The notes: generated by a model not told the origin, from the letters alone. DNA of 61,121 bases from Alphaproteobacteria bacterium (GCA_020054105.1 JAGVLW010000013.1:1-61121), one strand, 5' to 3'. Shown: positions 5,742 through 37,399, counted from the stretch's first letter. Program-made: numbers and translations.

Positions 5742-5832
5742 AAGTCGTTAGTTGATAGTCGTTAGTCGTTAGTATATGCATGGGCACAGCAGAATAACAA
5801 GCTATAGACTAATGACTCACGACTAACGACTT
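5742..5832. repeat. Heptamer-built palindromic element (AGTCGTT family), copy 1
   Basis: Left arm agtcgtt-agttgat-agtcgtt-agtcgtt-ag. The right arm gactaatgactcacgactaacgactt is its imperfect reverse complement. Fills the divergent SDR/ccmC intergenic region. Confidence 0.85.
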
Positions 5833-5834
5833 TT

Positions 5835-6545
5835 ATGCATACATTCGCTTCCCCCTCCCGTTTCCTCCGCATTGCCGACAGGCTGTTGCCGTGGCTTGTA
5901 GCGGCGACGGTCGGGCTGCTGGCTTTCGGACTTTTACAGGCGCTCTTCATCTCGCCGCCGGATTACCAGCAGGGCGATAGCGTGCGCATCATGTATGTGC
6001 ATGTGCCGAGCGCCTGGATGAGCCTGATGATTTATTCGGTCATGGCGGCTTCGAGCGCGTCGTTTCTCATCTGGAAACATCCGCTGGCGGATATTGTCGC
6101 ACGCGTATCGGCGCCCATCGGCGCGGGCTTTACCCTGATTACGCTGGTGACCGGCTCGCTGTGGGGCAAACCGATGTGGGGCGCCTATTGGGTGTGGGAT
6201 GCGCGGCTGACTTCGGTGCTCATCCTGTTTTTTCTTTATATCGGCTATATCGCCCTGTCCGACGCCTATGCCACCATCGAGCGCGGCAAGAAAATCTGCG
6301 CCGTGCTGGCGCTGGTCGGGTTCGTCAATATTCCGGTCATCCGCTTTTCGGTGGATTGGTGGAATACGCTGCACCAGCCCGCCAGCATCGTCCGCTCAGG
6401 CGGCATCGCCATCGACCCGTCCATGCTGGCGCCGTTATTTAGCATGGGCGCGGCGTTTTTCTGCCTCTATGCGGTTTTGTTGATCGTCAGGGTCAAAACC
6501 GCCCTGCTGGAGCAGAAAATTCGGCGCTTGCAGTTTAGTCGTTAG
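5835..6545 (+). CDS. ccmC: Heme ABC transporter permease CcmC
   Basis: PPDYQQGDSVRIMYVHVP, WWD-domain motif WGKPMWGAYWVWDARLTS, and WWNTLHQ. Confidence 0.95.
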   Translation: MHTFASPSRFLRIADRLLPWLVAATVGLLAFGLLQALFISPPDYQQGDSVRIMYVHVPSAWMSLMIYSVMAASSASFLIWKHPLADIVARVSAPIGAGFTLITLVTGSLWGKPMWGAYWVWDARLTSVLILFFLYIGYIALSDAYATIERGKKICAVLALVGFVNIPVIRFSVDWWNTLHQPASIVRSGGIAIDPSMLAPLFSMGAAFFCLYAVLLIVRVKTALLEQKIRRLQFSR

Positions 6546-6621
6546 TTGCAAACCACATGAACACGCGATATATAGGCGGTCCGATTCATTCCTAACGACT
6601 AAGGACTAACGGCTAATGACT
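6535..6621. repeat. Heptamer-built palindromic element (AGTCGTT family), copy 2
   Basis: Left arm ttagtcgttagttg overlaps the ccmC stop. Right arm ctaacgactaaggactaacggctaatgact overlaps the fdxA ATG. Confidence 0.8.
6546..6574 (+). promoter_or_regulatory. Putative sigma70 promoter of fdxA
   Basis: TTGCAA-N17-TATATA, located between the arms of the heptamer palindrome. Confidence 0.55.
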
Positions 6622-6948
6622 TTCGTTGTCACCGACGCCTGCATCAAATGCAAATATACCGACTGTGTGGAAGTCTGCCCGGTGGACTGTTTCTATGAGG
6701 GCGAAAATATGCTCGTCATTAACCCCGACGAATGCATCGATTGCGGCGTGTGCGAGCCGGAATGCCCGGTGGAGGCCATTCTTCCGGAGTCTGACGAGAT
6801 GCTCAAATGGGTGGAGCTCAACCGCGAATATGCCGCCAAATGGCCCAATATCACCGTGAAGAAGCCCGGCCCGGCCGATGCCGACAGCCATAAGGGCGAG
6901 GCGGGCAAGTTCGAAAAATACTTCAGCCCGGCGCCCGGCGGCAGCTGA
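6616..6948 (+). CDS. fdxA: Ferredoxin FdxA (7/8Fe)
   Basis: [29 protein letters not shown] and [12 protein letters not shown]. Upstream of carD, as is usual in alphaproteobacteria. Confidence 0.95.
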
Positions 6949-7124
6949 TTCGACAAAAACCGGCCTTCCTACAACTAATTCCTTTTTTTTTCGTTAATTT
7001 TGTGGTATGTTGATGCTCGTTTTAACCAAGCACGCTACCTAATGGTGTGTTTTGTATAAACATATACCAGATGTAGTTAACCGATGCGTAATTTTGCATC
7101 ACTTCTACCATAAGGGATCAAACT

Positions 7125-7970
7125 ATGAGCAAGAAGTCAGCAAAGAAAAAAATAGCTAAAAAATCCGTAACGGGAAAAAAAGTCGCTGTAAAAGCGAAGA
7201 AAAAGGTTGTTAAGCCGTCGGTTAAGAAGAAAGCCATCGTGAAGCAGGTAAAGAAGCCCGCTCCGGCCAAGAAAATAGCCGCCAAAAAACCCGTCGCTAA
7301 AAAACCGATCGCCAAGCCGGTTGTCGTAAAAAGCAAAGTGAAAAACAAGGTGGTTGCCAAGCCCGTGGCAAAGCCGGTTGCAAAACCCGTCATTGCCAAG
7401 AAAGCGCCGGACCTCAAAGTCGTGGTCCAGCCGAAAATATTATACAAGGTCGGCAACTACGTGGTGTATCCGACGCACGGCGTCGGCAAGATCATGGCTG
7501 AAGAAACCCAGATGATCGGCGATATCGAGCTGCGCATGCTGGTCATCTCGTTCGAGAAAGACAAGATGACCCTACGCGTGCCGGTCTCGCGCGCCGGTGC
7601 TGCCGGTTTGCGTCCGATCAGCGGCGTCGAGCAGATGAAAAAAGTATTCATCACGCTGAGGAGCAAAGCCAAGATCAGCCGCGGCATGTGGTCGCGCCGT
7701 GCCCAGGAATACGAAACCAAGATCAATTCCGGCAACATCATCTTCATCTCGGAAGTCGTCCGCGACCTCCATCAGAATGTCGATCAGTCGGAACGCTCTT
7801 ATTCCGAGCGCATGATCTATGAATCGGCGCTCGCGCGCCTGGTAGGCGAATTGGCCGCTGCCGAAGGCACCGACCATAAAACCGCTACCGACAAGCTGAT
7901 GAAGCTCCTGCGCGCCAAGGTCGCGGCTGCGAATGCAGCGGCTGCCGAAGCGGCGAAAGAAGCGGCTTAA
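7125..7970 (+). CDS. carD: CarD/CdnL family transcription factor with long Lys/Ala/Pro-rich N-terminal extension
   Basis: CarD motifs YVVYPTHGVG, MTLRVP, WSRRAQEYETKINSG and SYSERMIYESA, preceded by about 100 aa of histone-H1-like low-complexity sequence. Confidence 0.9.
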   Translation: MSKKSAKKKIAKKSVTGKKVAVKAKKKVVKPSVKKKAIVKQVKKPAPAKKIAAKKPVAKKPIAKPVVVKSKVKNKVVAKPVAKPVAKPVIAKKAPDLKVVVQPKILYKVGNYVVYPTHGVGKIMAEETQMIGDIELRMLVISFEKDKMTLRVPVSRAGAAGLRPISGVEQMKKVFITLRSKAKISRGMWSRRAQEYETKINSGNIIFISEVVRDLHQNVDQSERSYSERMIYESALARLVGELAAAEGTDHKTATDKLMKLLRAKVAAANAAAAEAAKEAA

Positions 7971-7989
7971 GAAAAATCGAAATGACAAG

Positions 7990-8018
7990 AAAAAGCGGCC
8001 TTCGGGCCGCTTTTTTTT
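7990..8018 (+). terminator. Rho-independent terminator after carD (possibly bidirectional)
   Basis: AAAAA-GCGGCC-ttcg-GGCCGC-TTTTTTTT. Confidence 0.9.
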
Positions 8019-8034
8019 ACAAGTAAGATAGATT

Positions 8035-8601
8035 ATGAAAACAGCCGTGTTAAATAAAGCCTCTTTAACGAATTTCATTAAATATCTGCGTATTCTTGCA
8101 GGCGTAGGAGGATCTCCCAGTGAAAATTTTGAGCAGGATTTCTTTGCATTGCCTGCTGGAGAACAAAGAATTGCATGTATCGTAGCTCCTATTATGTCAA
8201 GAGCCTTCGATAAGGTTGCAACCACTCTTGAATCCAGGCAGACCCTAACGCATGGCGAGTTTGAATCAATGACAATGGCTGCGGTGAATGCTGAAACCAG
8301 GCAGTTTTCTTTAAATACAAGAAACGAAAAAATTCTAATTGAATTATCACGGTTGGTAAGAGAACAATCTCCTGAATCAAAAGCACTGTTAGAAGAAGGA
8401 GAAGCATATATACAGGAGCGATATCCTGATGCATCTATCCAACAAAGAGCCAGTCTAGCATTGGTACAAAAATCAGTAGGCGCGACTCGACAGATGTTTG
8501 ATAGTATTTCGAGCGTTTTTAATGAAATTGCCGGGGAGCAAGCTCATCAACCGCCCCCTGGCGACCACCCCTCAAGGACCCGTTTCAAGAAACGAAAATA
8601 A
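8035..8601 (+). CDS. Hypothetical protein (AT-rich orphan)
   Basis: 188 aa ORF with no recognisable motif and basic C-terminus RTRFKKRK. Confidence 0.65.
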   Translation: MKTAVLNKASLTNFIKYLRILAGVGGSPSENFEQDFFALPAGEQRIACIVAPIMSRAFDKVATTLESRQTLTHGEFESMTMAAVNAETRQFSLNTRNEKILIELSRLVREQSPESKALLEEGEAYIQERYPDASIQQRASLALVQKSVGATRQMFDSISSVFNEIAGEQAHQPPPGDHPSRTRFKKRK

Positions 8602-8729
8602 TTAGGCCGTTTTTTGTGGTTGTCATAATTCTTTCACATTACTTAGCCCCTGGAATGACTTATAATTAGCCCATGCTAAAGACATTGACGCTTTATCCCA
8701 AAGAAAAACCGACCATTCTCAACAAGTAG

Positions 8730-9239
8730 ATGGCCATAGGTGGTTTGCTCGGCTCCCTGTTCGGCCCAATTTTCGGGACGGCGGCGGGCATGATGATCGG
8801 CGGATTCATCGGCAAAAACCGCATGGAAGTCGAGACTACCCAGGGCCGTAAAGTCAGCGATACGCCCTCATTTTGGAATAAGGACACGTTGCTTGGCGGG
8901 CTTATCGGCCTGGTTTCGGGCGGACTGGTGGGAATGGTGATCGCCGCCGCCGGAATAGCGATTGCAGCCTCGGGAGGTCCGATAGCAGGGCTTTCGCTCG
9001 CGGCTGCCGGATTGCTCGCCGGAACCGCGGTGGCGACTTTTGCCGGCGCCGTCATCGGCGGCAAACACGGGCAAAAACGCCTGCTGGACGATTACCGCCA
9101 GGCGGCGTTGCAGGAGCAGCAACGGCAACCGGCAGCGACGCCGGATTTCAGCGTCGAGCTCGATATGCAACCCGGCAAAAGCTTCGCGCAAGACATCGAA
9201 CTTCAGCGCAAGCAAGCGGCAACGCAAAGAACGCTATAA
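8730..9239 (+). CDS. Hypothetical membrane protein with glycine-zipper-like helices; possibly starts at 8673 with an in-frame TAG
   Basis: Two Gly-rich hydrophobic repeats (GGLLGSLFG..., GGLIGLVSGG...). An in-frame upstream ATG at 8673 is separated from it by TAG 8727-8729. Confidence 0.7.
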   Translation: MAIGGLLGSLFGPIFGTAAGMMIGGFIGKNRMEVETTQGRKVSDTPSFWNKDTLLGGLIGLVSGGLVGMVIAAAGIAIAASGGPIAGLSLAAAGLLAGTAVATFAGAVIGGKHGQKRLLDDYRQAALQEQQRQPAATPDFSVELDMQPGKSFAQDIELQRKQAATQRTL

Positions 9240-9240
9240 C

Positions 9241-12150
9241 TCACGCCACCTTCCGGCCCTTTTTCAGCATCGGCTTCAAATATTCGCCGGTGACGCTTTC
9301 CTTGTGTTTGGCGATGTCTTCCGGCGTGCCGCTGGCGACGATCCGGCCGCCTTTATTGCCGCCGCCGGGGCCGATATCTAGTATCCAGTCGGAGGTCTTG
9401 ATGACGTCGAGATTATGCTCGATCACCAGCACCGTGTTGCCGGCATCGACCAGCGTATGCAGCACGCCAAGCAGCTTCTTGATGTCGTCGCTATGCAACC
9501 CGGTGGTCGGCTCGTCGAGAATATAGAGCGTGCGGCCGGTGGCGCGCTTGGACAGTTCCTTGGCAAGCTTGATGCGCTGCGCCTCGCCGCCGGAAAGCGT
9601 CGTCGCCGACTGGCCGATGGCTATATAGCCGAGCCCGACCTCCTGCAGCGCCACGAGCTTTTCGCGGATGGAAGTCTGCGCGGTGAAAAACGCCGCGCCC
9701 TCATCGACGGTCATCGCCAATACTTCGGAAATCGATTTGTCCTTATATTTGATGTCGAGCGTCTCGCGGTTATAGCGTTTGCCGTGGCAGACGTCGCATT
9801 TGACATAGACGTCGGGCAGGAAATGCATCTCGATTTTGATGAGCCCGTCGCCCTGGCAGGCCTCGCAGCGCCCGCCCTTGACGTTGAACGAGAAACGCCC
9901 GGCCTGATAGCCGCGCGCTTTGGCTTCGGGCAGCGCCGCGTACCAGTCGCGGATGGGGGTGAAGGCGCCGGTATAGGTGGCCGGGTTCGAGCGCGGCGTG
10001 CGGCCGATGGGCGACTGGTCGATCTCGATGATCTTGTCGATGAACTCGAGGCCCGAGATGCTGTCATGCGCGCCGGGCATGTCGCGGCTGCCATGCATGC
10101 GTTTGGCGATGGCCTTGTAGAGCGTCTCGATCACCAGCGACGACTTGCCGCCGCCGGACACGCCGGTGACGCAGGTGAAGGTCGCCAGCGGAATCTCGGC
10201 CTTGACGTTTTTGAGGTTGTTGGCGCGCGCGCCGTTGATGACGATTCTTTTTGTCTTGTGAATCGGGCGGCGCGTTTCCGGCACGGCGATGAATTTCGCG
10301 CCGCTTAGATATTGCCCGGTCAGGCTGTTCTTGGTGTTCATCACCTGCTGCGCCGTGCCCTGGGCGACGATATGCCCGCCATGAATGCCGGCGCCGGGGC
10401 CGATATCGATCAGATGGTCGGCATGGCGCATCGTGTCTTCGTCATGCTCAACGACGATTACGGTGTTGCCAAGGTCACGCAGGTGCCGCAGCGTGTGCAA
10501 CAGGCGCGCATTGTCGCATTGATGGAGGCCTATCGATGGTTCATCCAATACATAGAGCACGCCGGAAAGCCCGGAGCCGATCTGCGAGGCGAGGCGGATG
10601 CGCTGCGATTCGCCGCCTGAAAGCGTGCCGGCCTCGCGCGACAGCATCAGGTAATCGAGCCCGACATTCATCAGGAATTTGAGCCGCTCGCAAATTTCCT
10701 TGAGGATCTTCTCGGAAATCTGCTGGTGCTTTTTGGAAAGTTTTTTCTCCAGCCTGGCGAACCAGTCATGCGCGGCGGTGATGGTAAAATGCGTTACCTC
10801 GCCGATATGCAGCCCGTCGATCTTGACGCAAAGCGATTCCGGCTTGAGGCGAAAGCCCTTGCAGGTTTCGCAGGGATGCTCGTTCTGGTATTTGGCGAAT
10901 TCCTCGCGCACATTGTCGCTGGTCAGCTCGCGGTAGCGCCGCTCCAGGTTGGGGATGACGCCCTCGAACGGTTTTTGCACGGTAAAATGGCGCGAGCCGT
11001 CATTATAGGTCATGCGCACTTCTTCGTCGCCGGAGCCGTGGAGAATGATGTGCCGCACTTTTTCCGACAGCTCCTTAAACGGCGTATGCAGGCTGAACTG
11101 AAAATGCTTCGCCAGCGATGCCAGCGCATCCTGGAAAAACCGCGTATTGCCCGCCCACGGCATTCCGCCCCACGGCACGATGGCGCGGTCGGCCAGTGTC
11201 TTATTGCGGTCGGGAATAATCAAGTCGACGTCGAATGCCGATTGCGTTCCCAGCCCGTCGCAGGCCGGGCAGGCGCCATACGGGCTGTTGAAGGAAAACA
11301 GCCGCGGCTCGATCTCCGACAGGGTGAAGCCGCTTACCGGACAGGCAAACTTGCTGGACATGGTGAAGGTAACGGGTAACGGGTTACGGGTTACAGATTT
11401 ATTTTTATCTGTGTCCTGTTTTCCGTTACCTGTTACCTCTACTCGAACCAGTCCTTCTCCCAGCCCCAGCGCCGTCTCGATGGAATCCGCCAGCCGGTTG
11501 CCCAGTTCTTTATTGACCACGATGCGGTCGACGACCACTTCGATTTCGTGTTTCTTGTTTTTATCCAGTGTCGGCAATTCGTCGGCTTCGTAGAGCTTGC
11601 CGTTGATCTTGAAGCGTTGAAAACCCTTCTTTTTAAGCTCGGCGAATTCCTTGCGGTACTCGCCCTTATGGCCGCGCACTACCGGCGCCAGCAGCATGAG
11701 CTTCGTGCCTTCGGGCAATTCCATGACGCGGTCGACCATCTGCGACACGGTCTGGCTCTCGATAGGCAGGCCGGTGGCGGGCGAATAGGGAATGCCGATG
11801 CGGGCATAGAGCAGGCGCAGGTAATCGTAGATTTCGGTGACGGTGCCGACCGTCGAGCGCGGGTTGCGCGAGGTGGTTTTCTGGTCGATGGCAATGGCCG
11901 GCGAAAGCCCGTCGATGGATTCGACGTCGGGCTTGTCCTGGATGTTGAGGAACTGGCGGGCATAAGACGACAGCGACTCGACATAGCGGCGCTGGCCCTC
12001 GGCGTAAATCGTGTCGAACGCCAGGCTGGATTTGCCGGATCCGGACGGGCCGGTGATGACCACCAGCTTGTTGCGCGGAATCTCGACGTCGATATTCTTG
12101 AGGTTATGTTCCTTGGCGCCGCGGATGGTGATGTATTCGTCTTTTTTCAT
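9241..12150 (-). CDS. uvrA: Excinuclease ABC subunit UvrA
   Basis: Two ABC ATPase modules ([18 protein letters not shown]), LSGGESQR and LSGGEAQR signatures, zinc-finger Cys motifs. Confidence 0.98.
11368..11437. repeat. In-frame heptamer palindromic element inside uvrA (GGTAACR family)
   Basis: 70 nt: a 29-nt arm of 4 heptamers, a 12-nt AT-rich loop, and an inverted 29-nt arm. Encodes [23 protein letters not shown]. Confidence 0.85.
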
Positions 12151-12257
12151 GGATTCCCTTGTTTTTTTAAAGCGGCGGATGGTATCAAATAATCGCTGGC
12201 GTGTAACGTACTTTTACGCTTATATGGTGCGGAATTAATATTTTTTAAAGAGATCTA

Positions 12258-12704
12258 ATGCCGCCCACCGCCGCCATAGACAGAAACAGCATTATCGCTG
12301 AGCTAAGAACGCGCGGCAGGCAGCTTGGCCGTGAGGGAATGACCCTCCTGATTAATAAGGCAGGAGTAAGCGGCGGCGATCCAGGTTCTGAAATGCCGCC
12401 CGTCAATCATCAGGCAGGCGAGTTTGGAAGCTTTGAAATGTCCTGGCCTTTGGCGGGCGGCGGTTTGCCGGAAATGATTAGAGACTACCTGATGCAGGAA
12501 GGAATCATTACCAGCACCGTAGCCGCTACCAGCTACACTGGCCGTACGGCTTGCCTGCAGTTAAGCAGCCCGCAACAGGTTGCGGCGGTGAAGGCATTAT
12601 TTGAAGAGGCGGGGTTCTGGGAACATATCGCCATGGTGGATATTAACAGGTCGCGCATCCCCAACCTGCTTGAGAATCCCTTTGCCAGCAAAGCGAGAAA
12701 ATAA
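12258..12704 (+). CDS. Hypothetical protein
   Basis: 148 aa orphan between uvrA and ssb. No recognisable motif. Confidence 0.6.
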   Translation: MPPTAAIDRNSIIAELRTRGRQLGREGMTLLINKAGVSGGDPGSEMPPVNHQAGEFGSFEMSWPLAGGGLPEMIRDYLMQEGIITSTVAATSYTGRTACLQLSSPQQVAAVKALFEEAGFWEHIAMVDINRSRIPNLLENPFASKARK

Positions 12705-12743
12705 TACAACAACCGATACGATTAACCTAAGAGAGGACATAAT

Positions 12744-13202: not shown

Positions 13203-13220
13203 TCTCTTTTTCGCCGGATT

Positions 13221-14461: not shown

Positions 14462-14570
14462 GGCAAACCCTTTCCATTGGTTATCGGATTTTCCGATTTA
14501 TAACAGCAAGGTATTGAGAAAGATTTAATGATTGCGGGCAGCGGTTACGCGCGTTCCTTAAGATGGACGG

Positions 14571-15805: not shown

Positions 15806-15865
15806 GGTGTGTACGTTTTTTACTTGTAATAGGAACGTTTACATTGATCGGAATGGCGCGATATA

Positions 15866-15890: not shown

Positions 15891-15915
15891 GTAGTTATAT
15901 TGAATTTGGTGGTCA

Positions 15916-17075: not shown

Positions 17076-17727
17076 AGAAAAAAAACGTCTGGTAAAGCCT
17101 GCCGTCGGTAATTTCGCTGCCCCAGCCCGCCGCGCCGCTATGCGGAACGCTGCCGCGATGCAGGATCAGCCGGTTATAGACGTTGGCGTAGCTATCGACC
17201 AATTGCCAGTTTTCCTTGGGCGTAAACCGCTCTTCGTTATTGCCCGATTTATTTTGCCAGGTGAACAGGCCGGTATTATGCGGCGCATGTTTATTGAGAT
17301 AAATAATCCCCGCCCAGCCATCGGCGCCCGCTGCGTTCCACGGATCACCTTCGGTGTGATTATGCACCGCTTCGCCCAGCTCTTGCGGATGGTGTTTGAC
17401 ATGGAAAGCGCAGTTCCACCAGGCGCTGCGCGGCTGTTTCTCATAGCCGGGGGCGGGCAGCCCCAGCGCATCGGTCGGAAAGCTCAGCTGCCATTTTTTC
17501 AGGTCGATGCGCTCGCCGGTGAGGAATTCGAGCTTGGCGATAAGCGCCTCCGACGATTTAAACGGGCATTGGGTTGCTTCCTTGAACCGGCTGGTGCGCC
17601 ATAAGATAGTATTTGGATTGTTGGGGGATTTATTGTACGGGGTACAATAATTTTGCGTCATGGCGTAGCGCGCCACCGCGTCGGGCTCGGCATAAAAATC
17701 GTCGGCAATGATGATGTTTCGTTTCAT
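17017..17727 (-). CDS. 2OG-Fe(II) oxygenase superfamily protein (DUF6445-like)
   Basis: IIIADDFYAEPDAV, H-T-E metal motif, WAGIIYLN, NVYNRLILHRG..PH, and RLYQTFFF. Confidence 0.7.
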   Translation of the reverse strand: MKRNIIIADDFYAEPDAVARYAMTQNYCTPYNKSPNNPNTILWRTSRFKEATQCPFKSSEALIAKLEFLTGERIDLKKWQLSFPTDALGLPAPGYEKQPRSAWWNCAFHVKHHPQELGEAVHNHTEGDPWNAAGADGWAGIIYLNKHAPHNTGLFTWQNKSGNNEERFTPKENWQLVDSYANVYNRLILHRGSVPHSGAAGWGSEITDGRLYQTFFFSTLETMTAAPLENRELGLT

Positions 17728-17769
17728 GACTATGTTCTATATAATAACCCGTTTGGATTTGAAATCACA

Positions 17770-18930
17770 ATGAGCAGCCCGATCTATCTCGACTATAACG
17801 CCACCGCACCCGTTCGCCCCGAGGTGCTGGCCGCCATGCACGAAATCTTGCAGCAACCGGCGAACCCGTCCTCGGTGCATCGTTTTGGCCGGGAAGCGAA
17901 GAAACACCTGGAAAACGCCAGAAAAACCATCGCCGATGCCGTCAGCGCCTTTGTCAACGAGGTCATTCTCACCGCCTCCGCCACCGAGGCGAATGCCCTG
18001 GCGCTGCGTGGGTTTCCTGGACGGCGCGTGCTGGTAAGCGCGGTGGAGCATAGTTCGGTACTTAAGGTAACGGGAAGCAGGAAACAGGACACGGAAAATG
18101 CATCATCACCTGTAACCTGCAATCTGTTACCTGTTACCTCGTTCGGCGTCGTTGATCTGAATGCGCTCAGGTTAATGCTTTCCGAAAACACGCAGCCGGC
18201 ATTGGTCTCGGTGATGCTGGCCAATAACGAAACCGGCGTTATACAGCCGATTGCCGAACTGGCGGCCATTTGCAAAAAATATGATGCGCTGCTGCATTGC
18301 GACGCCGTGCAGGGCTTGGGAAAAATCCCGGTAGATTTCGGGTTGCTCGGTTGCGATATGATGACGATTTCGCCTCATAAATGCGGCGGGCCGGTGGGCG
18401 CGGCAGCGTTGGTCATTAAGCAAAACCTGGCGATTGCGTCCTTGCTTACCGGCGGCGGCCAAGAGCTTGGACGACGGGCGGGAACGGAAAATTTGGCTGC
18501 CATTATCGGCTTCGCCAGGTCGGTTCAGTTAACTGACTTATCGCATATGAAACGCCTGCGCGGCTGGCTGGATGCGATGGAAACAGCCGTTGCCTCACAA
18601 GGCGGCATCGTATTCGGCAAAGCCGTTTCCCGCCTGCCCAATACCAGTTGTATCGCCATGCCGGGCGTGTCAAGCGAAGTTCAGCTGATGAATTTCGACC
18701 TTCAGAACATCGCCATTTCCGCCGGTTCCGCCTGCTCATCGGGAAGAATCGAGGTTTCCCATGTGCTTGCCGCCATGTGCATAGATAAGGGGTTGGCCGG
18801 CAGCGCTATTCGTGTCAGCGGCGGCTGGCAAACCACTCAGGAACATGTTAAAATATTTAGTGAAAACTGGCAAAACACCTATGCCAGGCTGGGAAAAGCT
18901 GATATAAGAATTTCCTCGGCTAATAGTTGA
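17770..18930 (+). CDS. Cysteine desulfurase family protein (NifS/IscS paralog)
   Basis: Start at MSSPIYLDYNAT. NNETG, DAVQ, PLP lysine in SPHKCGGP, catalytic SAGSACSSG. Confidence 0.92.
   Translation: MSSPIYLDYNATAPVRPEVLAAMHEILQQPANPSSVHRFGREAKKHLENARKTIADAVSAFVNEVILTASATEANALALRGFPGRRVLVSAVEHSSVLKVTGSRKQDTENASSPVTCNLLPVTSFGVVDLNALRLMLSENTQPALVSVMLANNETGVIQPIAELAAICKKYDALLHCDAVQGLGKIPVDFGLLGCDMMTISPHKCGGPVGAAALVIKQNLAIASLLTGGGQELGRRAGTENLAAIIGFARSVQLTDLSHMKRLRGWLDAMETAVASQGGIVFGKAVSRLPNTSCIAMPGVSSEVQLMNFDLQNIAISAGSACSSGRIEVSHVLAAMCIDKGLAGSAIRVSGGWQTTQEHVKIFSENWQNTYARLGKADIRISSANS
18066..18138. repeat. In-frame heptamer palindromic element inside the cysteine desulfurase gene (GGTAACR family)
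   Basis: 73 nt: two 29-nt inverted arms of 4 heptamers and a 15-nt loop. Encodes VTGSRKQDTENASSPVTCNLLPVT. Confidence 0.85.
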
Positions 18931-20209: not shown

Positions 20210-20497
20210 ATGACGACAAAAGACCAATTAATTGAAGCGATAGGTAAAAAAATTGCAGCCTCACAAGATGCCTGCGAATTACTGGAAGAAGATGCACATG
20301 AAGGCGGAAAAGGGCATATTATAGCAGATGTTCGCATGGAGAGCGCTACTGAAAAACTGGCAAACGCCCTTATCGTGGCAGCGGGGGAAGCTGGCGCGAT
20401 GACGGCTTTGAATAGCATGTCCATTACCGATATTACGGCTGCCTTAGAAAGTGCTATGCACAATCGTCCTGTCTCATTTGGGGTAGGAGTAAAATAG
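20210..20497 (+). CDS. Hypothetical protein inserted between iscS and iscU
   Basis: 95 aa AT-richer ORF with its own RBS-like sequence. No known motif. Confidence 0.55.
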   Translation: MTTKDQLIEAIGKKIAASQDACELLEEDAHEGGKGHIIADVRMESATEKLANALIVAAGEAGAMTALNSMSITDITAALESAMHNRPVSFGVGVK

Positions 20498-20507: not shown

Positions 20508-20909
20508 ATGGCATATTCAGAAAAAGTAATCGATCATTACGAGAATCCGCGCAACGTGGGCTCGTTGGACAAGGGCGATAATTCCGTCGGTACCGGCCTG
20601 GTCGGCGCGCCGGCTTGCGGCGACGTGATGAAACTGCAAATCAAGGTTGACGAGAAAACCGGCATCATCCAGGACGCGAAGTTCAAGACCTTCGGCTGCG
20701 GCTCGGCCATCGCTTCGAGCTCGCTCGTCACCGAATGGGTCAAGGGCAAGACGGTGGATGAGGCGATGCAGATGAAAAACACCGAAATCGCCGAGCATCT
20801 CTCGCTGCCGCCGGTGAAGATTCATTGCTCGGTGCTCGCCGAAGACGCCATCAAGGCGGTGGTCGCCGATTATAAGAGTAAGCATGGAGCGAAGAGCGAC
20901 GCCGCTTAA
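20508..20909 (+). CDS. iscU: Fe-S cluster scaffold IscU
   Basis: YSEKVIDHYENPRNVGS, GAPACGD, GCGSAIAS and LPPVKIHCS. Confidence 0.98.
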   Translation: MAYSEKVIDHYENPRNVGSLDKGDNSVGTGLVGAPACGDVMKLQIKVDEKTGIIQDAKFKTFGCGSAIASSSLVTEWVKGKTVDEAMQMKNTEIAEHLSLPPVKIHCSVLAEDAIKAVVADYKSKHGAKSDAA

Positions 20910-20911: not shown

Positions 20912-20984
20912 AAGTCGTTAGTTGTGAGTCGTTAGTCTTTAGCGACTTACTTGACTAACGACTATCGACTAAGGACTAACGACT
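20912..20984. repeat. Heptamer-built palindromic element (AGTCGTT family), copy 3
   Basis: Left arm aagtcgttagttgtgagtcgttagtctttag, right arm gactaacgactatcgactaaggactaacgact. Fills the iscU-iscA spacer. Confidence 0.85.
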
Positions 20985-20987
20985 ATT

Positions 20988-31065: not shown

Positions 31066-31067
31066 AT

Positions 31068-31565
31068 ATGCGCACAGGCGTTTATCCCGGTACGTTCGAC
31101 CCGATCACGGTCGGGCATATGGACATCATCAAGCGGGCGCTCAATGTCGTCGACCGGCTGGTGATCGCGGTGGCGCTCGATACCGGCAAGGCGCCGGTTT
31201 TCGACATGGCGACGCGCGCAAGATTGGTGGAGCAGGATGTGGCGGCGCTGGGAGAAATCAGCACGCGCATCCAGGTCAAAACCTTTTCCGGCCTGCTGGT
31301 CAATTTCGCCGAGGAACACCATGCCGGGCTGCTCATCCGCGGCCTGCGCGCCGTGTCGGATTTCGAATACGAGTTCCAGATGGCCTGCATGAATTCGCGG
31401 CTCAAGCCCGATATCGAGACGGTGTTCCTGACCGCCTCCGAGGATACGCATTTCATCTCGTCGCGCTTCGTAAAGCAGATCGCTCGCCTCAGCGGCGATA
31501 TTTCCAGCTTCGTGTCAAGCAACGTGGCGCAGCATCTGCGCGCGCATTTTGCAGGGATGAATTAG
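31068..31565 (+). CDS. coaD: Phosphopantetheine adenylyltransferase
   Basis: YPGTFDPITVGH, IRGLRAVSDFEYE and ISSRFVK. Confidence 0.97.
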   Translation: MRTGVYPGTFDPITVGHMDIIKRALNVVDRLVIAVALDTGKAPVFDMATRARLVEQDVAALGEISTRIQVKTFSGLLVNFAEEHHAGLLIRGLRAVSDFEYEFQMACMNSRLKPDIETVFLTASEDTHFISSRFVKQIARLSGDISSFVSSNVAQHLRAHFAGMN

Positions 31566-31592
31566 AAAGGATGGAGATTGGTTGAACAGTCC

Positions 31593-31683
31593 CCCTACGC
31601 TCCGAAAGGAGCTTCGGAGGACACTCCTACGCCCAAGGTCGGCCTTCAGGTGGCGTAAGCCACCCGAAGCCGAAGGCGTAGGG
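31593..31683. repeat. Composite REP-like palindrome at the 3' end of tRNA-His
   Basis: Hairpin CTCCGAA/TTCGGAG, plus a nested hairpin CCTACGCC...GGCGTAGG with inner GGTGGC-gtaa-GCCACC. Confidence 0.65.
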
Positions 31684-31761
31684 TGGGGCGAGTGACGGGG
31701 GTCGAACCCGCGACATCCAGAATCACAATCTGGCGCTCTAACCAACTGAGCTACACCCGCC
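31684..31761 (-). tRNA. tRNA-His(GUG) with encoded G-1, C73 and CCA
   Basis: Minus strand reads G-GCGGGTG-TA-GCTC AGTTGGTTA GAGC-G-CCAGA TT GTG AT TCTGG-ATGTC-GCGGG TTCGACC CCCGT-CACTCGC-C-CCA. All stems pair. Confidence 0.97.
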
Positions 31762-31830
31762 ATAGTTAGGAATTGGGCTTTAGGGATTAAGGATTAGACG
31801 GTAAAAAGTCAATATAAATGACGGATTAAC

Positions 31831-32277
31831 ATGAAAAAACTCACGCAACTCGGCAAATCGGCCCGCTTGACCGCGTCGCCCGCGAAAGCGGTCATCGAAA
31901 AAGTACGCAACCCGCACAAGGGCACGGCTTACTGCGTGCGCTTCGCCTGCCCGGAATTCACGTCGATCTGCCCGATCACCGGCCAGCCGGATTTCGCGCA
32001 TCTGGTGATTGATTATGTGCCCAAGGATTTCCTGGTGGAAAGCAAGTCGCTCAAGCTGTTCTTGGGATCGTTTCGCAATCACGGCGCCTTTCACGAGGAT
32101 TGCACGGTGGCGATCGCGCTTAGGCTGATTGCCGAGATCAAGCCCGTCTGGCTGCGCATCGGCGGCTATTGGTATCCGCGCGGCGGCATTCCCATCGACG
32201 TGTTTTACCAGACCGGAGAAGCGCCGAAAGACGTGTGGATTCCGCCGCAGGAAGTTCCGGCGTACCGCGGGCGATAA
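31831..32277 (+). CDS. queF: NADPH-dependent 7-cyano-7-deazaguanine (preQ0) reductase
   Basis: [30 protein letters not shown] and [10 protein letters not shown]. Confidence 0.96.
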
Positions 32278-33645
32278 TCAGGCCGCCTGCTCGCTGTCGA
32301 TGTTGAGGTCGGCGATCCACGGCTCGCCGGGAATGACTTCCTGCCTGCCGATGGAGACGTAATGGAAGCCGTATTTCTGCATGTCCTGACGCTTATAGAT
32401 ATTGCGCAGATCGACGATCAGCGGCGTTCTCAGTAGGGTCTTCACTTTCTTCAAATCGAGGCTGCGAAACTCGTTCCATTCGGTAAGTATCGCCAGCGCG
32501 TCGGCATTTTCCATCGCGGCCACTGCGGTGTCACACCAGGCAATATCGCCGCGAAGCAGCTTCGCCGCTTCCTTCATGCCTTGCGGGTCATAAGCGCGGA
32601 TTTTCGCGCCGGCGGCAAGCAGGGCAGGGAGAATGACCAGACTGGCGCTTTCGCGCATGTCGTCGGTGCCGGGCTTGAATGTCAGGCCGAGTATACCGAT
32701 GGTTTTTCCGGCGACGCTGCCGCCGCAAGCGGCGATAATTTTTTCCGCCATCCGCGCCTTGCGCGCATCGTTGCTGGCGACGGTGGCTTCGACAAGGCGG
32801 CTCGGCGCGCCGGTATCGGCGGCGATGCGGCGAAGCGCACGCGTGTCTTTAGGAAAACACGAGCCGCCATAGCCCGGCCCGGCCTGCAGGAATTTATCGC
32901 CGATGCGTTTATCGAGCCCGACGCCGCGGGCGACGTCGCGTATGTTGGCGCCGACACGCTCGCAGATATCGGCCATTTCGTCGATGAAGGCAATGCGCAT
33001 CGCCAGCATGGTGTTGGCGGCGTATTTTATCATCTCGGCGCTTTCGAACGTCGTAAAGAGCAGCTTGGCGCCGTTGAGGCAGATCGGTTCGTAGAGCTTA
33101 TTCATCAGCGTTTTCGCGCGCGCGGAATCGATGCCGACCACCACGCGGTCAGGCGACATGAAGTCGGCGATCGCCGTGCCTTCGCGCAGAAATTCCGGGT
33201 TGGAGGCGACGTCGAAATCGGCATTCGGGTTGGCCTTGGCGATCATCTTGGCAATGGCGCGGTTGCTGCCTACCGGCACGGTCGATTTGATGACCACCAG
33301 CGTGTATTTGGCGATGGCGATGGCAACTTGCGCAACGACGGCGTCAAGCGCATCGGTATCAGGCAGGTCGCCGCTAGCGTCCGAAGGCGTGCCCACAGCG
33401 ACGAATACGATGTCGGCTTGCGCCACCGCGGCTGCCAGGCCGGTGGTAAAGGACAACCGCCCCGCCTGGCGATTTTTTGCCACCATCGTCTCGAGGCCTG
33501 CCTCGTAAATCGACATGATGCCTTGCTGCAGGCCGGCAATTTTATCGGCGTCGTTATCGACGCAGGTGACATTAAAGCCGAACTCCGAAAAACACACGCC
33601 GGACACCAGCCCGACATATCCCGTCCCGATCACTGCGATTTGCAT
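32278..33645 (-). CDS. ugd: UDP-glucose 6-dehydrogenase
   Basis: Start MQIAVIGTGYVGLV. SNPEFLREG, catalytic GGSCFPKD, and LTFKPGTDDMRES. Confidence 0.95.
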   Translation of the reverse strand: MQIAVIGTGYVGLVSGVCFSEFGFNVTCVDNDADKIAGLQQGIMSIYEAGLETMVAKNRQAGRLSFTTGLAAAVAQADIVFVAVGTPSDASGDLPDTDALDAVVAQVAIAIAKYTLVVIKSTVPVGSNRAIAKMIAKANPNADFDVASNPEFLREGTAIADFMSPDRVVVGIDSARAKTLMNKLYEPICLNGAKLLFTTFESAEMIKYAANTMLAMRIAFIDEMADICERVGANIRDVARGVGLDKRIGDKFLQAGPGYGGSCFPKDTRALRRIAADTGAPSRLVEATVASNDARKARMAEKIIAACGGSVAGKTIGILGLTFKPGTDDMRESASLVILPALLAAGAKIRAYDPQGMKEAAKLLRGDIAWCDTAVAAMENADALAILTEWNEFRSLDLKKVKTLLRTPLIVDLRNIYKRQDMQKYGFHYVSIGRQEVIPGEPWIADLNIDSEQAA

Positions 33646-33647
33646 AA

Positions 33648-34553
33648 TTATTTTTTCACTCCACTGCGTTCCAGCACCGCGTCCAGTTCCTTTATGACCT
33701 GCCCGCGCAGGTCTTTGCGTTCCAGCGCATAGGCGACGTTGGCCGCCACGAAGCCGGAGAGCGAGCCGCAATCGTAGCGCGTGCCTTCGAAGCGGTAGCC
33801 GTAAATATCCTGCATCCTTGCAATCGCGTCGGTCAGCTGGATTTCGCCGCCGGCGCCGGGCTGTTGCTTATCGAGCAGGGTGAATACTTCCGGCTGGAGA
33901 ATATAGCGGCCGATGATCGAAAGCGTCGACGGCGCCTTGTCGGGCGCGGGTTTTTCCACCAGCCCCTTGGCCGCGACCAGCCGCTTATCCGCCGGTTTTT
34001 TCTTGTCGTCGATATCGACGATGCCGTAGCTGGCGGTCTGCGCGCGCGGTATGTCCATGACGCCGAGGATATTGCCGCCGACCTGAGCGTACGCTCCGGC
34101 CATCTGCTGGAGGCAGGGCGTTTTCGACAGCACCATGTCGTCGGCCAGTATCACCGCGAATGGCTCGTCGCCGACCAGATGGCGGGCGCACCATACCGCG
34201 TGTCCCAGGCCGAGCGGCTCCTGCTGGCGCACGAAAATCACGTTACCGGCTTCGGGCAGCCAGTCGCTGGTCAGCTCCAGCTCTTTGCGCTTGTTGCGCG
34301 CGCCCAGCACGCTTTGCAGTTCATAGACATTGTCGAAATGGTCGTTGATGGCGTGCTTGTTGCGGCCGGTGACGAAAATAAACTGCTCGACCCCGGCGGC
34401 CTTTGCTTCCTCAAACGCATAATGAATCAATGGCTTGTCTACCACCGGCAGCATTTCCTTGGGCATGGACTTGGTGGCCGGCAAAAAGCGCGTGCCCAGC
34501 CCGCCGACCGGGAACACCGCCTTGCGAATTTTAGTATTTTTGTGGCTTTTCAT
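33648..34553 (-). CDS. galU: UTP--glucose-1-phosphate uridylyltransferase
   Basis: PVGGLGTRFLPATK..PKEMLP, RQQEPLGLGHAV and GEIQLTDA. Confidence 0.96.
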   Translation of the reverse strand: MKSHKNTKIRKAVFPVGGLGTRFLPATKSMPKEMLPVVDKPLIHYAFEEAKAAGVEQFIFVTGRNKHAINDHFDNVYELQSVLGARNKRKELELTSDWLPEAGNVIFVRQQEPLGLGHAVWCARHLVGDEPFAVILADDMVLSKTPCLQQMAGAYAQVGGNILGVMDIPRAQTASYGIVDIDDKKKPADKRLVAAKGLVEKPAPDKAPSTLSIIGRYILQPEVFTLLDKQQPGAGGEIQLTDAIARMQDIYGYRFEGTRYDCGSLSGFVAANVAYALERKDLRGQVIKELDAVLERSGVKK

Positions 34554-34732
34554 AGGTTTTTCATCGAATCAGGCTGGAGATAAGCCATAAATGCGGCAAA
34601 AGTCAAACATTATGAATTAACAAAATACTGGCGTATTTTTACGCTGCCTACGGCGCGGCCAGCGCGGCTTTCGGCCGGCGCTGGCATAGCAAGATCAAGG
34701 AATCTTGCTATAGTTCGCATGGGTATTTATGC

Positions 34733-34760
34733 TTGACAGCGGGCGTTGCATCGTTATGTT
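34733..34760 (+). promoter_or_regulatory. Putative sigma70 promoter of rpmG
   Basis: TTGACA-N16-TATGTT. Confidence 0.55.
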
Positions 34761-34794
34761 ACTTCGCTCATTGTTTTATGTAGGAATTACAATT

Positions 34795-34962
34795 ATGGCA
34801 AAGAAGAATATTGTTCTCATTAAGCTCGTTAGCTCGGCGGATACCGGGTTTTATTACGTGGCGAAAAAGAACCCGAAAACCAAGACCGAAAAACTGGCCT
34901 TCAAGAAGTACGATCCGGTCGTGCGCAAGCACGTGGTTTTCAACGAAGCCAAGATTAAATAA
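34795..34962 (+). CDS. rpmG: 50S ribosomal protein L33 (zinc-free form)
   Basis: [21 protein letters not shown]...[19 protein letters not shown]. Confidence 0.97.
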
Positions 34963-34965
34963 TTC

Positions 34966-35370
34966 ATGTCCGATTTCATCACTAATGCGCTAGCCGCTGA
35001 AAAGCCCGCGCCCGCAGCCGTGCAATCGGCGACGGAAGTGCCCGCGGAATTGCCGCCGCATCTGTCTGCCGACAAAATGCTGCTCGACAATCTGATGATT
35101 CTCGGCGCGCTATTCTTCATTTTCTATTTCATCCTCATCCGCCCACAGCAAAAACGCCTCAAATTCCACCAGGCGATGCTCAAGGGCCTGGCCAAAGGCA
35201 ACAAGGTCATCACCTCCGGCGGCCTGATCGGCACGATCACGAAATTCGAAGGCAACGACATCGCCATCATCGAAGTCGCCCAGGGCGTGAAAGTCCGGGT
35301 GGCCAAATCGGCGATCACCGAAACAGTCGACGATAAAAACGCCGGCGGCGAAAGCGCCAATGACAATTGA
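34966..35370 (+). CDS. yajC: Preprotein translocase subunit YajC
   Basis: FYFILIRPQQKR and GNKVITSGGLIGTI. Confidence 0.94.
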   Translation: MSDFITNALAAEKPAPAAVQSATEVPAELPPHLSADKMLLDNLMILGALFFIFYFILIRPQQKRLKFHQAMLKGLAKGNKVITSGGLIGTITKFEGNDIAIIEVAQGVKVRVAKSAITETVDDKNAGGESANDN

Positions 35371-35406
35371 CGGTAAGCCTTAGCGGCTTCGCCGCTTGAG
35401 GGCCCC

Positions 35407-35520
35407 GTCATCCCGTGGAAGCCGTCAGCAGACGGCTGAGCACGGGATCCAGAAAAGCTAAAAGTCAGTAGACTTTTAGCGTCTATTTAAAGACTGGATC
35501 CCGGCTTTCGCCGGGATGAC
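35407..35520. repeat. Nested palindromic element resembling RPE/REP-type repeats
   Basis: GTCATCCCG...CGGGATCCAG ... CTGGATCCCGGCTTTCGCCGGGATGAC, with internal hairpins AGCCGTC/GACGGCT and GCTAAAAGTC/GACTTTTAGC. Confidence 0.8.
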
Positions 35521-35533
35521 AAAAAGGATAGCC

Positions 35534-37111
35534 ATGCTCCACTTCCCCCGCTGGAAAATCATTCTTATCGTCGGCACCTGCCTGCTATTCGTGGTGTTTG
35601 CCATTCCCAGTTTTTTAAGCGAACAAACGCGTGAGGCATTGCCGAAATGGTTGCCGCACCGCGCCGTTAGCCTTGGACTTGACCTGCAGGGCGGCTCGCA
35701 TCTGCTGCTCGAAGTTGATTTCGAGGCCTATCTGCGCGAGCAGCTGGTCAATGCCGTCGACGACGTGCGTGGCGTATTGCGCGAAAATAAAATCGGCTAT
35801 CGGGGCCTAAGCGCCGGCGACGGAAGGATCATATTTGCCTTGCGCGAGGAGAGCAGCGCCGACGTAAAACAACTCCTCTATAAACTCAACCCCGATCTCG
35901 ACGTTGCGCAGGACGGATTGAATTATACGCTAAGCTTTAATGATAAATGGCAGCAGGCCAGCCGCCAGCGCGTGCTTGAGCAGTCGCTCGAAATCGTCAG
36001 CCGCCGCGTCAACGAGACCGGCACCAAGGAGCCGATCATCCAGCGCCAGGGCGATAAGCGCATCGTGCTGCAAGTGCCCGGCCTTTCCGATCCGGAGCAT
36101 CTGAAAAACCTGCTGGGCCGCACCGCCAAAATGACTTTTCATCTGCTCGACGAGACGGTGGGCTATGAGGACATCGAGCGCGGCATCGCCCCGGCGGGCA
36201 CGCGGATTATTGTCGGCGACGATCACGACAAGCGCAGCGAGCGCCCGAACAAATACGCTGTTTTAAGCAAGGTGATGCTTTCGGGCGACCTGCTGGTCGA
36301 TGCGCATACCAGCTATGACGGGCAGACCGGCGAGCCGGTCGTCGCTTTCCGCTTCAACAATGCCGGCGCACGCAAGTTCGGTGAGATCACTGCCGCCAAT
36401 GTCGGCAAGCCTTTTGCCATCGTGCTCGATAATAAAGTCATCACCGCGCCGGTCATCCGCTCGCCGATCATCGGCGGCAGCGGCATCATCAGCGGCAATT
36501 TCACCGTGGAATCGTCCAACGATCTTTCGCTGCTGCTGCGCGCCGGCGCGCTGCCGGCGCCGCTGAAAATCATCGAGGAACGCTCGGTCGGCCCGAGCCT
36601 AGGCGCCGATTCGATTGCCGCCGGCGTGAAAGCCTCGATCATCGGCATCGCGCTGGTCATCACGTTCATGGTGGTATTTTACGGGCTGTTCGGCATGTTC
36701 GCCAACATCGCGATGCTCGTCAACGCCTTCATGACGCTCTCTCTGCTTGCCATGTTCGAGGCGACACTGACGCTGCCGGGCATCGCCGGCATTGTGCTGA
36801 CGGTCGGCATGGCGGTCGATGCCAACGTGCTTATTTACGAGCGCATGCGCGAGGAAATTCGCAACGGCAAATCGCCCTATGCAGCGGTGGAAGACGGTTT
36901 CCGCCTGGCTTTCGGCACGATCTTCGACAGCCACGTCACCACGCTGGTGGCGGCGCTGATCCTGTTCCAGTTCGGCACCGGCACGGTCAAGGGCTTTGCG
37001 GTGACGCTGGCGATCGGCATCGTCTGCTCGCTCTTTACCGCCGTTTTGGTCACGCGGCTGATGGTGGTGAGCTGGCTGAAATGGAAACGCCCGAAGACGC
37101 TGGCGATTTAG
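35534..37111 (+). CDS. secD: Protein translocase subunit SecD
   Basis: Start MLHFPRWK. LGLDLQGG, RRVNETGTKEP, LRAGALPAP, VGPSLG and DANVLIYER. No fused SecF half. Confidence 0.96.
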   Translation: MLHFPRWKIILIVGTCLLFVVFAIPSFLSEQTREALPKWLPHRAVSLGLDLQGGSHLLLEVDFEAYLREQLVNAVDDVRGVLRENKIGYRGLSAGDGRIIFALREESSADVKQLLYKLNPDLDVAQDGLNYTLSFNDKWQQASRQRVLEQSLEIVSRRVNETGTKEPIIQRQGDKRIVLQVPGLSDPEHLKNLLGRTAKMTFHLLDETVGYEDIERGIAPAGTRIIVGDDHDKRSERPNKYAVLSKVMLSGDLLVDAHTSYDGQTGEPVVAFRFNNAGARKFGEITAANVGKPFAIVLDNKVITAPVIRSPIIGGSGIISGNFTVESSNDLSLLLRAGALPAPLKIIEERSVGPSLGADSIAAGVKASIIGIALVITFMVVFYGLFGMFANIAMLVNAFMTLSLLAMFEATLTLPGIAGIVLTVGMAVDANVLIYERMREEIRNGKSPYAAVEDGFRLAFGTIFDSHVTTLVAALILFQFGTGTVKGFAVTLAIGIVCSLFTAVLVTRLMVVSWLKWKRPKTLAI

Positions 37112-37399
37112 ATGACTGGATAACCGGATGACTAGATGACTAAGAAATTATCGTGTAAAATACCTTGGTCATCTAATCATCTATTCATCTATTTTATGGG
37201 GCGATTTAGATGACTGGATAACCGGATGACTAGATGACTAAGAAATTATCGTGTAAAATACCTTGGTCATCTAATCATCTATTCATCTACTCTATGGGGC
37301 CATTTAGATGACTGGATAACCGGATGACTAGATGATTAAGAAATTATCGTGTAAAGTACCTTGGTCATCTAATCATCTATTCATCTAGTCATCTACTTT
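37103..37399. repeat. Three tandem 98-bp copies of an octamer-built palindromic element
   Basis: Copies start at 37103, 37201 and 37299. Each has degenerate TAGATGAC x4, a 27-nt loop, and degenerate GTCATCTA x3-4. The copies differ at a few positions. Confidence 0.92.

Follow-up and report, generated by a model that had tools for sequence, protein, structure and literature searches.

Six palindromic loci between positions 5,742 and 37,399 of a 61,121-nt stretch of DNA from an alphaproteobacterium (GCA_020054105.1, JAGVLW010000013.1:1-61121; hereafter the window, meaning the whole stretch) are hairpins whose arms consist of about 4.4 tandem 7- or 8-mers. We consider it reasonably probable that they are gene-less miniature relatives of "IVP cassettes", elements built around a gene of the PF05635 family, within a foldback population of about 150 elements in the same genome. 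What is new here is that all five PF05635 genes of that genome are enclosed by inverted arrays and stand in a one-to-one relation to five unit families. The study genome (G000, of which the window is contig C64; the other C-numbers denote its contigs and the other G-numbers related genomes) comprises 2.22 Mb in 113 contigs at 57% G+C and is 99.6% complete. The window genes are alphaproteobacterial in look (ccmC, fdxA, uvrA, nifS/iscS-iscU-iscA and secD), and the nearest genomes available for comparison belong to other genera, with protein identities of 66-78%.

Paired arrays and PF05635 genes

Tandem arrays of periods 7 and 8 are over-represented in G000 (348 and 172 arrays), periods 10 and 11 being represented by 89 and 85. 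Among the arrays of Tandem Repeats Finder (TRF), an inverted partner lies within 170 nt for 138 of 280 with period 7 and for 65 of 98 with period 8, while a reversed-sequence control gave 0 and the other periods approximately 0. When partners were sought within 180 nt of 378 arrays, 199 were found to be inverted and only 6 direct. A sensitive scan returned 533 arrays, 300 of them with a partner, versus three in the control; upon merging, there are 116 clear elements, or about 150 on the sensitive scan. The palindromic pairing of 7- and 8-mer arrays is beyond chance, and the further copies implied by the sequence-only reading, which took the window loci as one family of elements, are indeed present throughout the genome.

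The elements show a uniform anatomy. The median arm is 31 nt in heptamer and 34 nt in octamer elements, i.e. four complete units and the start of another; the loops, with 68% A+T, range from 2 to 134 nt around a median of 19 nt. This agrees with the plan read earlier from the window loci, namely about four units, an AT-rich loop and about four inverted units, except that the left arm at 6535 has only about two units. The arrays remain near 4.4 units throughout G000, with a few exceptions in C26 (6.7 units), C47 (12 units) and C84 (7.6 units). Two of these exceptions are lopsided: at C47:25101-25245 one arm alone has grown to 12 octamer units, and at C26:2025-2240 the 6.7 units are paired across a 134-nt loop that itself contains a different palindrome of the TCATCCCTGCGAAAGCAGGGATC type.

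A closer look at the units of five families revealed an invariant core of 4-6 nt (95-100% conserved) and 2-3 free positions (43-82% conserved), so that conservation is 5-10 times better in the core. The same pattern holds in intergenic and in-gene copies, and hence coding constraint does not explain it; stop-codon avoidance as the source of the free positions is ruled out, as the variation is equal outside genes. Copies of the AGTCGTT family begin exactly with AGTC and end with GACT, that is, they have the form (AGTCNNN)x4+AGT. Within an element, pairing at the free positions is barely above a between-element control; what unites the two arms is thus a family of words, not compensatory base pairing. 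The earlier claim of three unrelated units does not survive at the scale of the genome. At least eight unit families are present, and the 37 distinct heptamer consensus words are joined by single-base steps: a single-linkage network, built with rotation allowed and polarity kept, holds 73 of the 79 heptamer elements, and the words form 7 clusters versus 28 expected for random words. G-tracts are absent from AGTCGTT, GGTAACR and TAGATGAC, being present only in the small GGGGATT family.

The PF05635 family, named "23S rRNA intervening-sequence protein", comprises Avd-like four-helix bundles encoded by genes of about 105-140 aa. G000 has five such genes, which lie between protein-coding genes and are all enclosed by inverted 4-unit arrays situated 12-40 nt from the gene, each pair of arrays belonging to a different family (Table 1). 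The five paralogues are only 30-48% identical to each other. Strikingly many of the hairpins without a gene (78 of 116) are at most one mismatch away from one of the five resident cassette words; when five words were instead drawn from foreign cassettes, the matches averaged 16.7 and reached a maximum of 67 in 1000 draws. None of the six window loci contains a PF05635 gene, their loops being 10-42 nt, and they are therefore classed as gene-less relatives rather than cassettes; nevertheless, the arm words of five of the six (AGTCGTT and GGTAACR) are those of the resident cassettes on C26 and C13. An examination of other cargo between distant inverted arrays yielded only neighbouring hairpins around small native genes (rpsO, thiS and a relE-like gene).

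This association extends beyond G000. Across 23 related genomes, periodic inverted arrays enclose 49 of the 53 PF05635 genes with readable flanks. The tree of the PF05635 proteins is divided, with 100/100 support, into one clade in which octamers predominate and one of heptamers, and where sister proteins come from different genomes their words agree. Consistent with this, when proteins are compared with their nearest counterpart in another genome, the unit distance is 2.08; shuffled labels give 3.27, and 0 of 2000 shuffles get down to the observed value. On sequence evidence, the PF05635 gene and its arms travel as one unit. The gene-less hairpins of G014 likewise carry the word of its own cassette, and gene-less pairs occur in six of nine PF05635-bearing genome samples and in none of four PF05635-free samples. 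Taken together, five paralogues with five words, a pairing kept across genera and the many gene-less copies tie these repeats to PF05635.

In other phyla, we examined PF05635 homologues with 53-61% identity in three places. In Chroococcidiopsis the gene lies between heptamer arms of GAGGAGT, and on a JGI metagenome contig between those of AGGGATT; on a Planctomycetes contig a CCCCAGY array is clear at the right, whereas the left arm is degenerate. We take this CCCCAGY arm to be the word known as STRR1. The G000 protein matches PDB 2GSC, the Xanthomonas campestris protein XCC0516 (E 3.6e-25), and this entry and that of a second solved relative, 2RLD, contain five chains each. As X. campestris is the species in which inverted GGGAATC arrays have been described, the structure offers a further link to heptamer repeats. 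The family is structurally related to Avd, the accessory protein of the diversity-generating retroelements (PMC10053308), and has been termed functionally uncharacterised (bioRxiv 10.1101/2024.02.27.582315).

Window loci and occupancy of their sites

The six loci are present at the positions first read from the sequence (Table 1). The one at 6535 is partial, that at 18066 is degenerate and that at 37103 consists of three tandem copies. Folded as single-stranded DNA and compared with dinucleotide shuffles, five of the six are much more stable than expected (z -3.6 to -7.8), the exception being the locus at 6535.

Table 1. Coordinates of the window hairpins, their host genes, the PF05635 cassettes of G000 and the tRNA gene of the window
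Feature	Location	Strand	Unit family or host	Details
Hairpin 1	window 5743..5831		AGTCGTT	left arm 5743-5773 (x4.4), 33-nt loop, right arm 5807-5831 (x3.6)
Hairpin 2	window 6535..6621		AGTCGTT/AGTTGC	partial; left arm ~2 units (TTAGTCGTTAGTTGC), right arm 4.3 units
Hairpin 3	window 11366..11438		GGTAACR	TRF: GGTAACG units at 11368; inside uvrA, translated on - strand
Hairpin 4	window 18065..18140		GGTAACR	degenerate; in nifS/iscS-like cysteine desulfurase gene, translated on + strand as VTGSRKQDTENASSPVTCNLLPVT
Hairpin 5	window 20913..20985		AGTCGTT	4.3 + 4.7 units by TRF
Hairpin 6	window 37109..37395		octamer [TC][AG]GATGAC	three tandem copies: 37109-37193, 37207-37291, 37305-37395
uvrA host gene	window 9241..12150	-	hairpin 3	969-aa open frame, hairpin in frame
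nifS/iscS-like host gene	window 17653..18930	+	hairpin 4	hairpin in frame after VEHSSVLK
PF05635 cassette	C26:2870-3300		AGTCGTT	
PF05635 cassette	C40:3528-4003		CGTGGCT	
PF05635 cassette	C4:2926-3362		GGGGATT	
PF05635 cassette	C13:11096-11524		GGTNACN	
PF05635 cassette	C19:7614-8060		GAANTGRR	octamer
tRNA gene	window 31687-31760			Rfam

Hairpin 1 (fold -18.6 kcal/mol, z -5.1) takes up the spacer from which an SDR gene (- strand, start 5737) and ccmC (start 5835) diverge. Hairpin 2, whose fold has no clear excess stability over the shuffles (z -1.3), includes the ccmC stop codon (6543-6545) in its left arm and the fdxA start codon (6616) in its right arm, while its loop contains a TATATAG box also conserved in those relatives whose site is empty. 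Hairpin 3 (-20.9 kcal/mol, z -7.8) is inserted in UvrA between VEV and FTMSSKF, which is a variable loop in relatives. Hairpin 4 has a z of -3.6, and TRF reports it as a degenerate pair at 18065-18139. Hairpin 5 (-17.9 kcal/mol, z -5.1) is fitted between the iscU stop codon (20907-20909) and the iscA start codon (20988), 3 nt past the former and 2 nt ahead of the latter.

Hairpin 6 (z -5.6) is part of a 98-bp unit made up of the octamer hairpin and a 15-nt spacer, which TRF reports at 37102-37387 as 2.9 copies with 97% identity. Across the triplication (window 37102-37399) the repeated unit runs from the final 7 nt of secD (GGCGATT) through the hairpin and takes in the opening 4 nt of the DUF498 gene (ATGG). 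The stop codon of secD (37109-37111) is supplied by the TAG of the first hairpin unit, and the inner junctions of the triplication therefore read ATGGGGCGATTTAG, a four-codon mini-ORF (open reading frame). The 97% identity of the copies points to a recent tandem duplication, at a GG microhomology. Just 3' of the DUF498 gene, at 37772-38395, there is an A+T-rich spacer followed by a 175-aa ORF without a Pfam match. An Rfam scan of the window matched the tRNA gene alone, and a lone unpaired heptamer array (GGGCTTTAGGGATTAAGGATTA) adjoins this gene at 31769-31796.

For the density estimates about 200 kb were sampled per related genome: against 30 paired arrays per 281 kb in G000, the samples contained nine in G001, six in G018, five in G014 and three each in G013 and G024, and none was found in those of G005, G009, G016, G012, G030, G032 and G036. 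Closer relatives in which strain-level turnover might be followed were sought by exact-protein look-ups, which gave no match, and by a metagenome scan, in which the best IscU identity was 84%, with only 1-2 hairpins in 389 kb. The uvrA site is occupied in G000 (GGTAACA), G018, G001 (GGGATTC), G002 (GGTGACG) and G013 (AGTCGTT/AGTGGTT), with differing heptamer words; decayed hairpins are seen in G006 and G023 and none in many other genomes, and in the UvrA tree the genomes with an occupied site fall in two clades. The nifS site is empty in most of 30 relatives. At the corresponding position of the nifS-like gene, after VEHSSVL, G012 and G018 carry a different palindrome of the GTCATTGCGAGG...CGCAATGAC type, and G008 has two inverted CCCTCTCCC...GGGAGAGGG modules flanking about 60 nt of native coding sequence.

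The iscU-iscA junction is occupied only in G000 and the distant G013, in both cases by AGTCGTT elements ending in GACTATTATG, and is compact and empty in nearer relatives; hence, there must have been either a same-site gain twice or many losses. At the ccmC-fdxA junction AGTTGNN-type left arms are found in six genera, and the TATATAG box conserved in empty relatives lies inside the loop; this speaks for long persistence with drift of the word, the arms bracketing native sequence. A comparable in-gene case is C104:1357, where the 82-nt loop is conserved coding sequence. As for the iscS-iscU junction, it is occupied by a PF05635 cassette in G014, G012, G003 and G031; in the window this junction contains instead an orphan 95-aa ORF (20210-20497) without a Pfam match.

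On a crude long-ORF map of G000, about three-quarters of the elements lie between genes, though non-coding DNA makes up about one-tenth of the genome: 87 of 116 elements are not spanned by a long ORF and 29 are within one. The in-gene elements are read in family-specific frames (VTGxxKQ...PVT, VVSRKSLV...LTT, ELKNWRNEE...SSIPQF and VTRDSRLV...TSHE), and alignment with relatives maps them to variable protein loops. Between co-directional genes the upstream stop codon is -9 to +7 nt from the first arm in 27 of 45 junctions. Palindromic DNA can live in essential genes (uvrA, nifS and leuS) without breaking them, a point relevant to annotation and to the use of such repeats as strain markers.

This positioning raises the question of whether the hairpins are host-beneficial punctuation of gene junctions, kept by selection for their structure as RNA or DNA, for instance as RNase III sites, mRNA stabilisers, translation insulators with stops in all frames or devices for stop-start coupling. 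The proximity to stop codons, the window stop and start codons at or in the outermost units, the very stable folds and the continued occupancy of the ccmC-fdxA junction and uvrA site across genera are all in line with such a role, and the Xanthomonas repeats similarly lie beside stop codons. However, junctions in G000 are so short that any insert will abut both a stop codon and a start codon, one copy in four is inside coding sequence, and the iscU-iscA junctions of close relatives manage without an insert. Moreover, sense-strand G:U pairs do not exceed A:C (34 vs 81 in genes; 42 vs 66 in co-directional junctions), which gives no hint that a sense RNA stem is under selection, and pairing at the variable positions is hardly better than in the control. 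Given the lack of G:U excess and the weak covariation between arms, we reject selection for RNA structure, and regard the punctuation hypothesis as a whole as distinctly unlikely.

Spread of the elements and origin of the arms

Direct traces of copying are of two kinds. First, three elements agree in their arms and in a 45-nt loop while their left flanks are unrelated, attesting to whole-element copying. Second, tandem duplication is seen in the window triplication, with its unit including the ends of both flanking genes. Two of the three loop-sharing hairpins (C29:13778 and C81:806) also have at their right the same repeat of about 90 nt with a GTCCTCC...GGAGGAC palindrome, which constitutes another dispersed family.

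Dispersed copies with inverted ends, a trio copied whole with the loop included and presence/absence variation between related genera would be expected of non-autonomous transposons, either MITEs (miniature inverted-repeat transposable elements) or REPINs (paired repetitive extragenic palindromic, or REP, sequences), moved by a conventional transposase or a RAYT (REP-associated tyrosine transposase) encoded elsewhere. We consider this highly improbable. The RAYT/IS200 Y1 domain (PF01797) has no match in G000, despite its 99.6% completeness, while control genomes do match, and a RAYT/HUH partner is accordingly rejected. There are no direct repeats suggestive of target-site duplication in the flanks of the 26 elements grouped as the AGTCGTT family, and the loops are not common to the copies. 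At least eight families would further require several transposases in a 2.2-Mb genome, and the gene that does travel between such arms is PF05635, not a transposase. The sequence-only reading had likewise seen neither transposase nor terminal direct repeats, and in this it was right; its suggestion that RAYT/HUH or reverse transcriptase genes might correlate with the elements was not upheld. The reverse transcriptase of G000 is a single stand-alone 450-aa gene (C109:11422-12771) beside a pseudopilin-like gene, with orthologues in G001, G005, G014 and G017, a distribution that does not match the hairpin-bearing genomes; we therefore reject it as the generator.

A rather unlikely, though less remote, alternative is that the repeats are born of polymerases without any protein partner: slippage would make the arrays, intrastrand template switching (quasi-palindrome correction) would make the inverted partner, ectopic template switching or gene conversion would spread them, and the PF05635 genes would be passengers that settled in existing loops. 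The single-step word network is what such a process might leave, and the C47 element indicates that a single arm is able to expand alone. Fold-back copying of an arm would also yield the excess of inverted over direct partners and the arms bracketing native sequence, and an idea of polymerase-footprint slippage for heptamers is already in the literature, as quoted in PMC4692102. The broad occurrence of one word could be read in the same way. Exact (AGTCGTT)x3 is present in at least 120 contigs of many phyla (0.3 expected by chance, as an estimate), including Acidobacteriota, Gemmatimonadota, Gallionella and cyanobacteria. The arrays run to 3-20 units, among them blocks of variant units, and 24 of 80 examined have an inverted partner. 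On one Gemmatimonadetes contig of a metagenome-assembled genome (JAABRY010000212.1, ~1787-1930) we observed a nested double hairpin, with an outer (AGTCGTT)x3 ... (ACGACCT)x3 around an inner (GGTGAAA)x3 ... (TTTCACC)x3.

Against an origin by polymerase action alone is the recurrence of the same few words at more than 100 loci with exact ends and a fixed length of about 4.4 units. The much stronger conservation of the cores, outside genes too, is equally hard to reconcile with it, and the arms are not near-perfect mutual copies, unlike what a recent fold-back copy would give. The tie to PF05635 and the co-variation of unit and tree would need an extra assumption.

We hence favor the derivation of the hairpins from IVP cassettes, for which the following scenario can be proposed. 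An IVP cassette would be a small selfish unit in which a PF05635 gene is set between two arrays in inverted orientation, each of about 4.4 tandem units of 7 or 8 nt, and each lineage would have its own word of an invariant 4-6-nt core and 2-3 free positions. The coexistence of several such lineages in one genome would account for one plan with changing units. The gene-less hairpins might derive from the cassettes or propagate together with them, comparable to the transposon/MITE or RAYT/REPIN pairs. The PF05635 protein may recognise the periodic cores in RNA or in single-stranded DNA, putatively one core per subunit. Replication slippage and intrastrand fold-back template switching may renew and mirror the arms, and the word network, the rarity of direct pairs and the bracketing of native DNA by arms would follow from this; copies would survive only where a self-folding insert is tolerated. 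Thus, of the processes that the sequence-only reading had put forward, a trans-acting partner finds support in the gene-bearing copies and in a tree that tracks the unit, and slippage and template switching probably contribute, while selection for RNA structure drops out.

Several observations weigh against this scenario. Loops are unrelated between copies (3238 pairs), with the exception of the one trio, and some are native, as in the coding DNA of C104:1357 and the TATATAG box at ccmC-fdxA; simple descent from a cassette by gene loss does not explain such native-sequence loops. The co-variation of protein and unit could be plain co-inheritance of gene and arms. The presence/absence table of gene-less pairs gives a Fisher p of 0.07, and the genomes in it are related rather than independent. 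G012, with seven PF05635 genes, has no gene-less pair in 200 kb, and the prediction, set beforehand, that PF05635 copy number foretells hairpin density failed on this genome. The octamer GATGAC family (15 copies, including the locus at 37103) has no resident cassette in G000, nor does the AGTCGTT family of G013 have one in G013. Finally, we know of no catalytic activity for the PF05635 proteins.

A more general version of the scenario is conceivable, and we offer it tentatively. PF05635 pentamers might be sequence-specific readers with a 7-8-nt period that, with host replication, drive transposase-free foldback elements, in which case the heptamer repeats across phyla (STRR, the Xanthomonas GGGAATC and AGTCGTT) could be footprints of cassettes.

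Comparison with known repeat systems

The families of REP sequences and REPINs associated with a RAYT are similar in being dispersed, two-module inverted hairpins of family-specific sequence; the same modules also flank a single-copy protein gene, and the sequences form networks around master sequences (Bertels and Rainey, 2011; PMC3116915). They differ in that G000 has no RAYT gene and its modules are tandem arrays, not imperfect palindromes, and the candidate partner, unlike a RAYT, is a small helical protein without a known nuclease or transposase fold. MITEs have a target-site duplication and an internal sequence common to the copies and to a transposase-bearing parent, and neither is a feature of the G000 elements.

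The intervening sequences of 23S rRNA provide a closer parallel, since there too a PF05635 gene occupies the loop of a long stem formed by inverted flanks, as in the five G000 cassettes and 49 of 53 in relatives. Those intervening sequences, however, lie in helix 25 or 45, whereas the cassettes are between protein genes and have stems of periodic 7/8-mers, and the window loci are devoid of the gene. No reverse transcriptase is linked to the cassettes in G000.

Rickettsia palindromic elements are said to have been described by Ogata and colleagues in 2000 as 100-150-bp families with a whole-length consensus. The G000 hairpins resemble them in being inserted in frame at tolerant loops of housekeeping genes (uvrA and the nifS-like gene) and also between genes, but only the periodic arms are common to the copies and the loops differ.

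Heptamer repeats as such have reportedly been known since 1990 as the short tandemly repeated repetitive (STRR) sequences of cyanobacteria, and Mrazek is said to have found in 2007 that long simple heptamer repeats are over-represented in bacteria. We know of no accepted origin or function for them. The TAACTGA repeats of Beggiatoaceae, with BOGUAY having 169 sets that are direct and one that is inverted, have been described along with a review of the work on long simple sequence repeats (MacGregor, 2015; PMC4679880). Both types are, like ours, dispersed tandem heptamers, mostly intergenic beside start or stop codons and sporadic across phyla, with 7 as the most frequent period. They are mainly direct and of variable length, whereas G000 arrays have about 4.4 units and nearly always form inverted pairs.

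The closest precedent is in Xanthomonas. Inverted pairs of GGGAATC heptamers have been reported in X. campestris and X. axonopodis, as have GGGGA(T/C)T repeats in Nostoc (Rehm et al., 2015; PMC4692102). The Xanthomonas repeats, (GGGANTN)n, are conserved at positions 1-4 and 6, prefer four units and form 70-75 convergent pairs per genome able to adopt stem-loops; 89-93% of them are intergenic, near or overlapping the upstream stop codon, without a link to insertion sequences, and their function was given as unknown (PMC4692102). Hence, the plan of about four heptamers and about four inverted heptamers is already published, for one word. The G000 hairpins share with this type the core with free positions, the four-unit mode, the convergent pairs and the mostly intergenic location beside a stop codon. 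What they do not share is the G-rich, quadruplex-capable unit, the Xanthomonas work reading its one G-rich unit as a G-quadruplex motif: G000 has at least eight coexisting families, octamers included, most of them unable to form quadruplexes, and one copy in four is translated in frame. In addition, the main families of G000 each have a PF05635-bearing copy, no protein partner having been proposed for the Xanthomonas repeats (PMC4692102). Heptamer repeats thus gain a candidate protein partner, and the PF05635 proteins, equally unexplained outside the diversity-generating retroelements, gain a candidate context.

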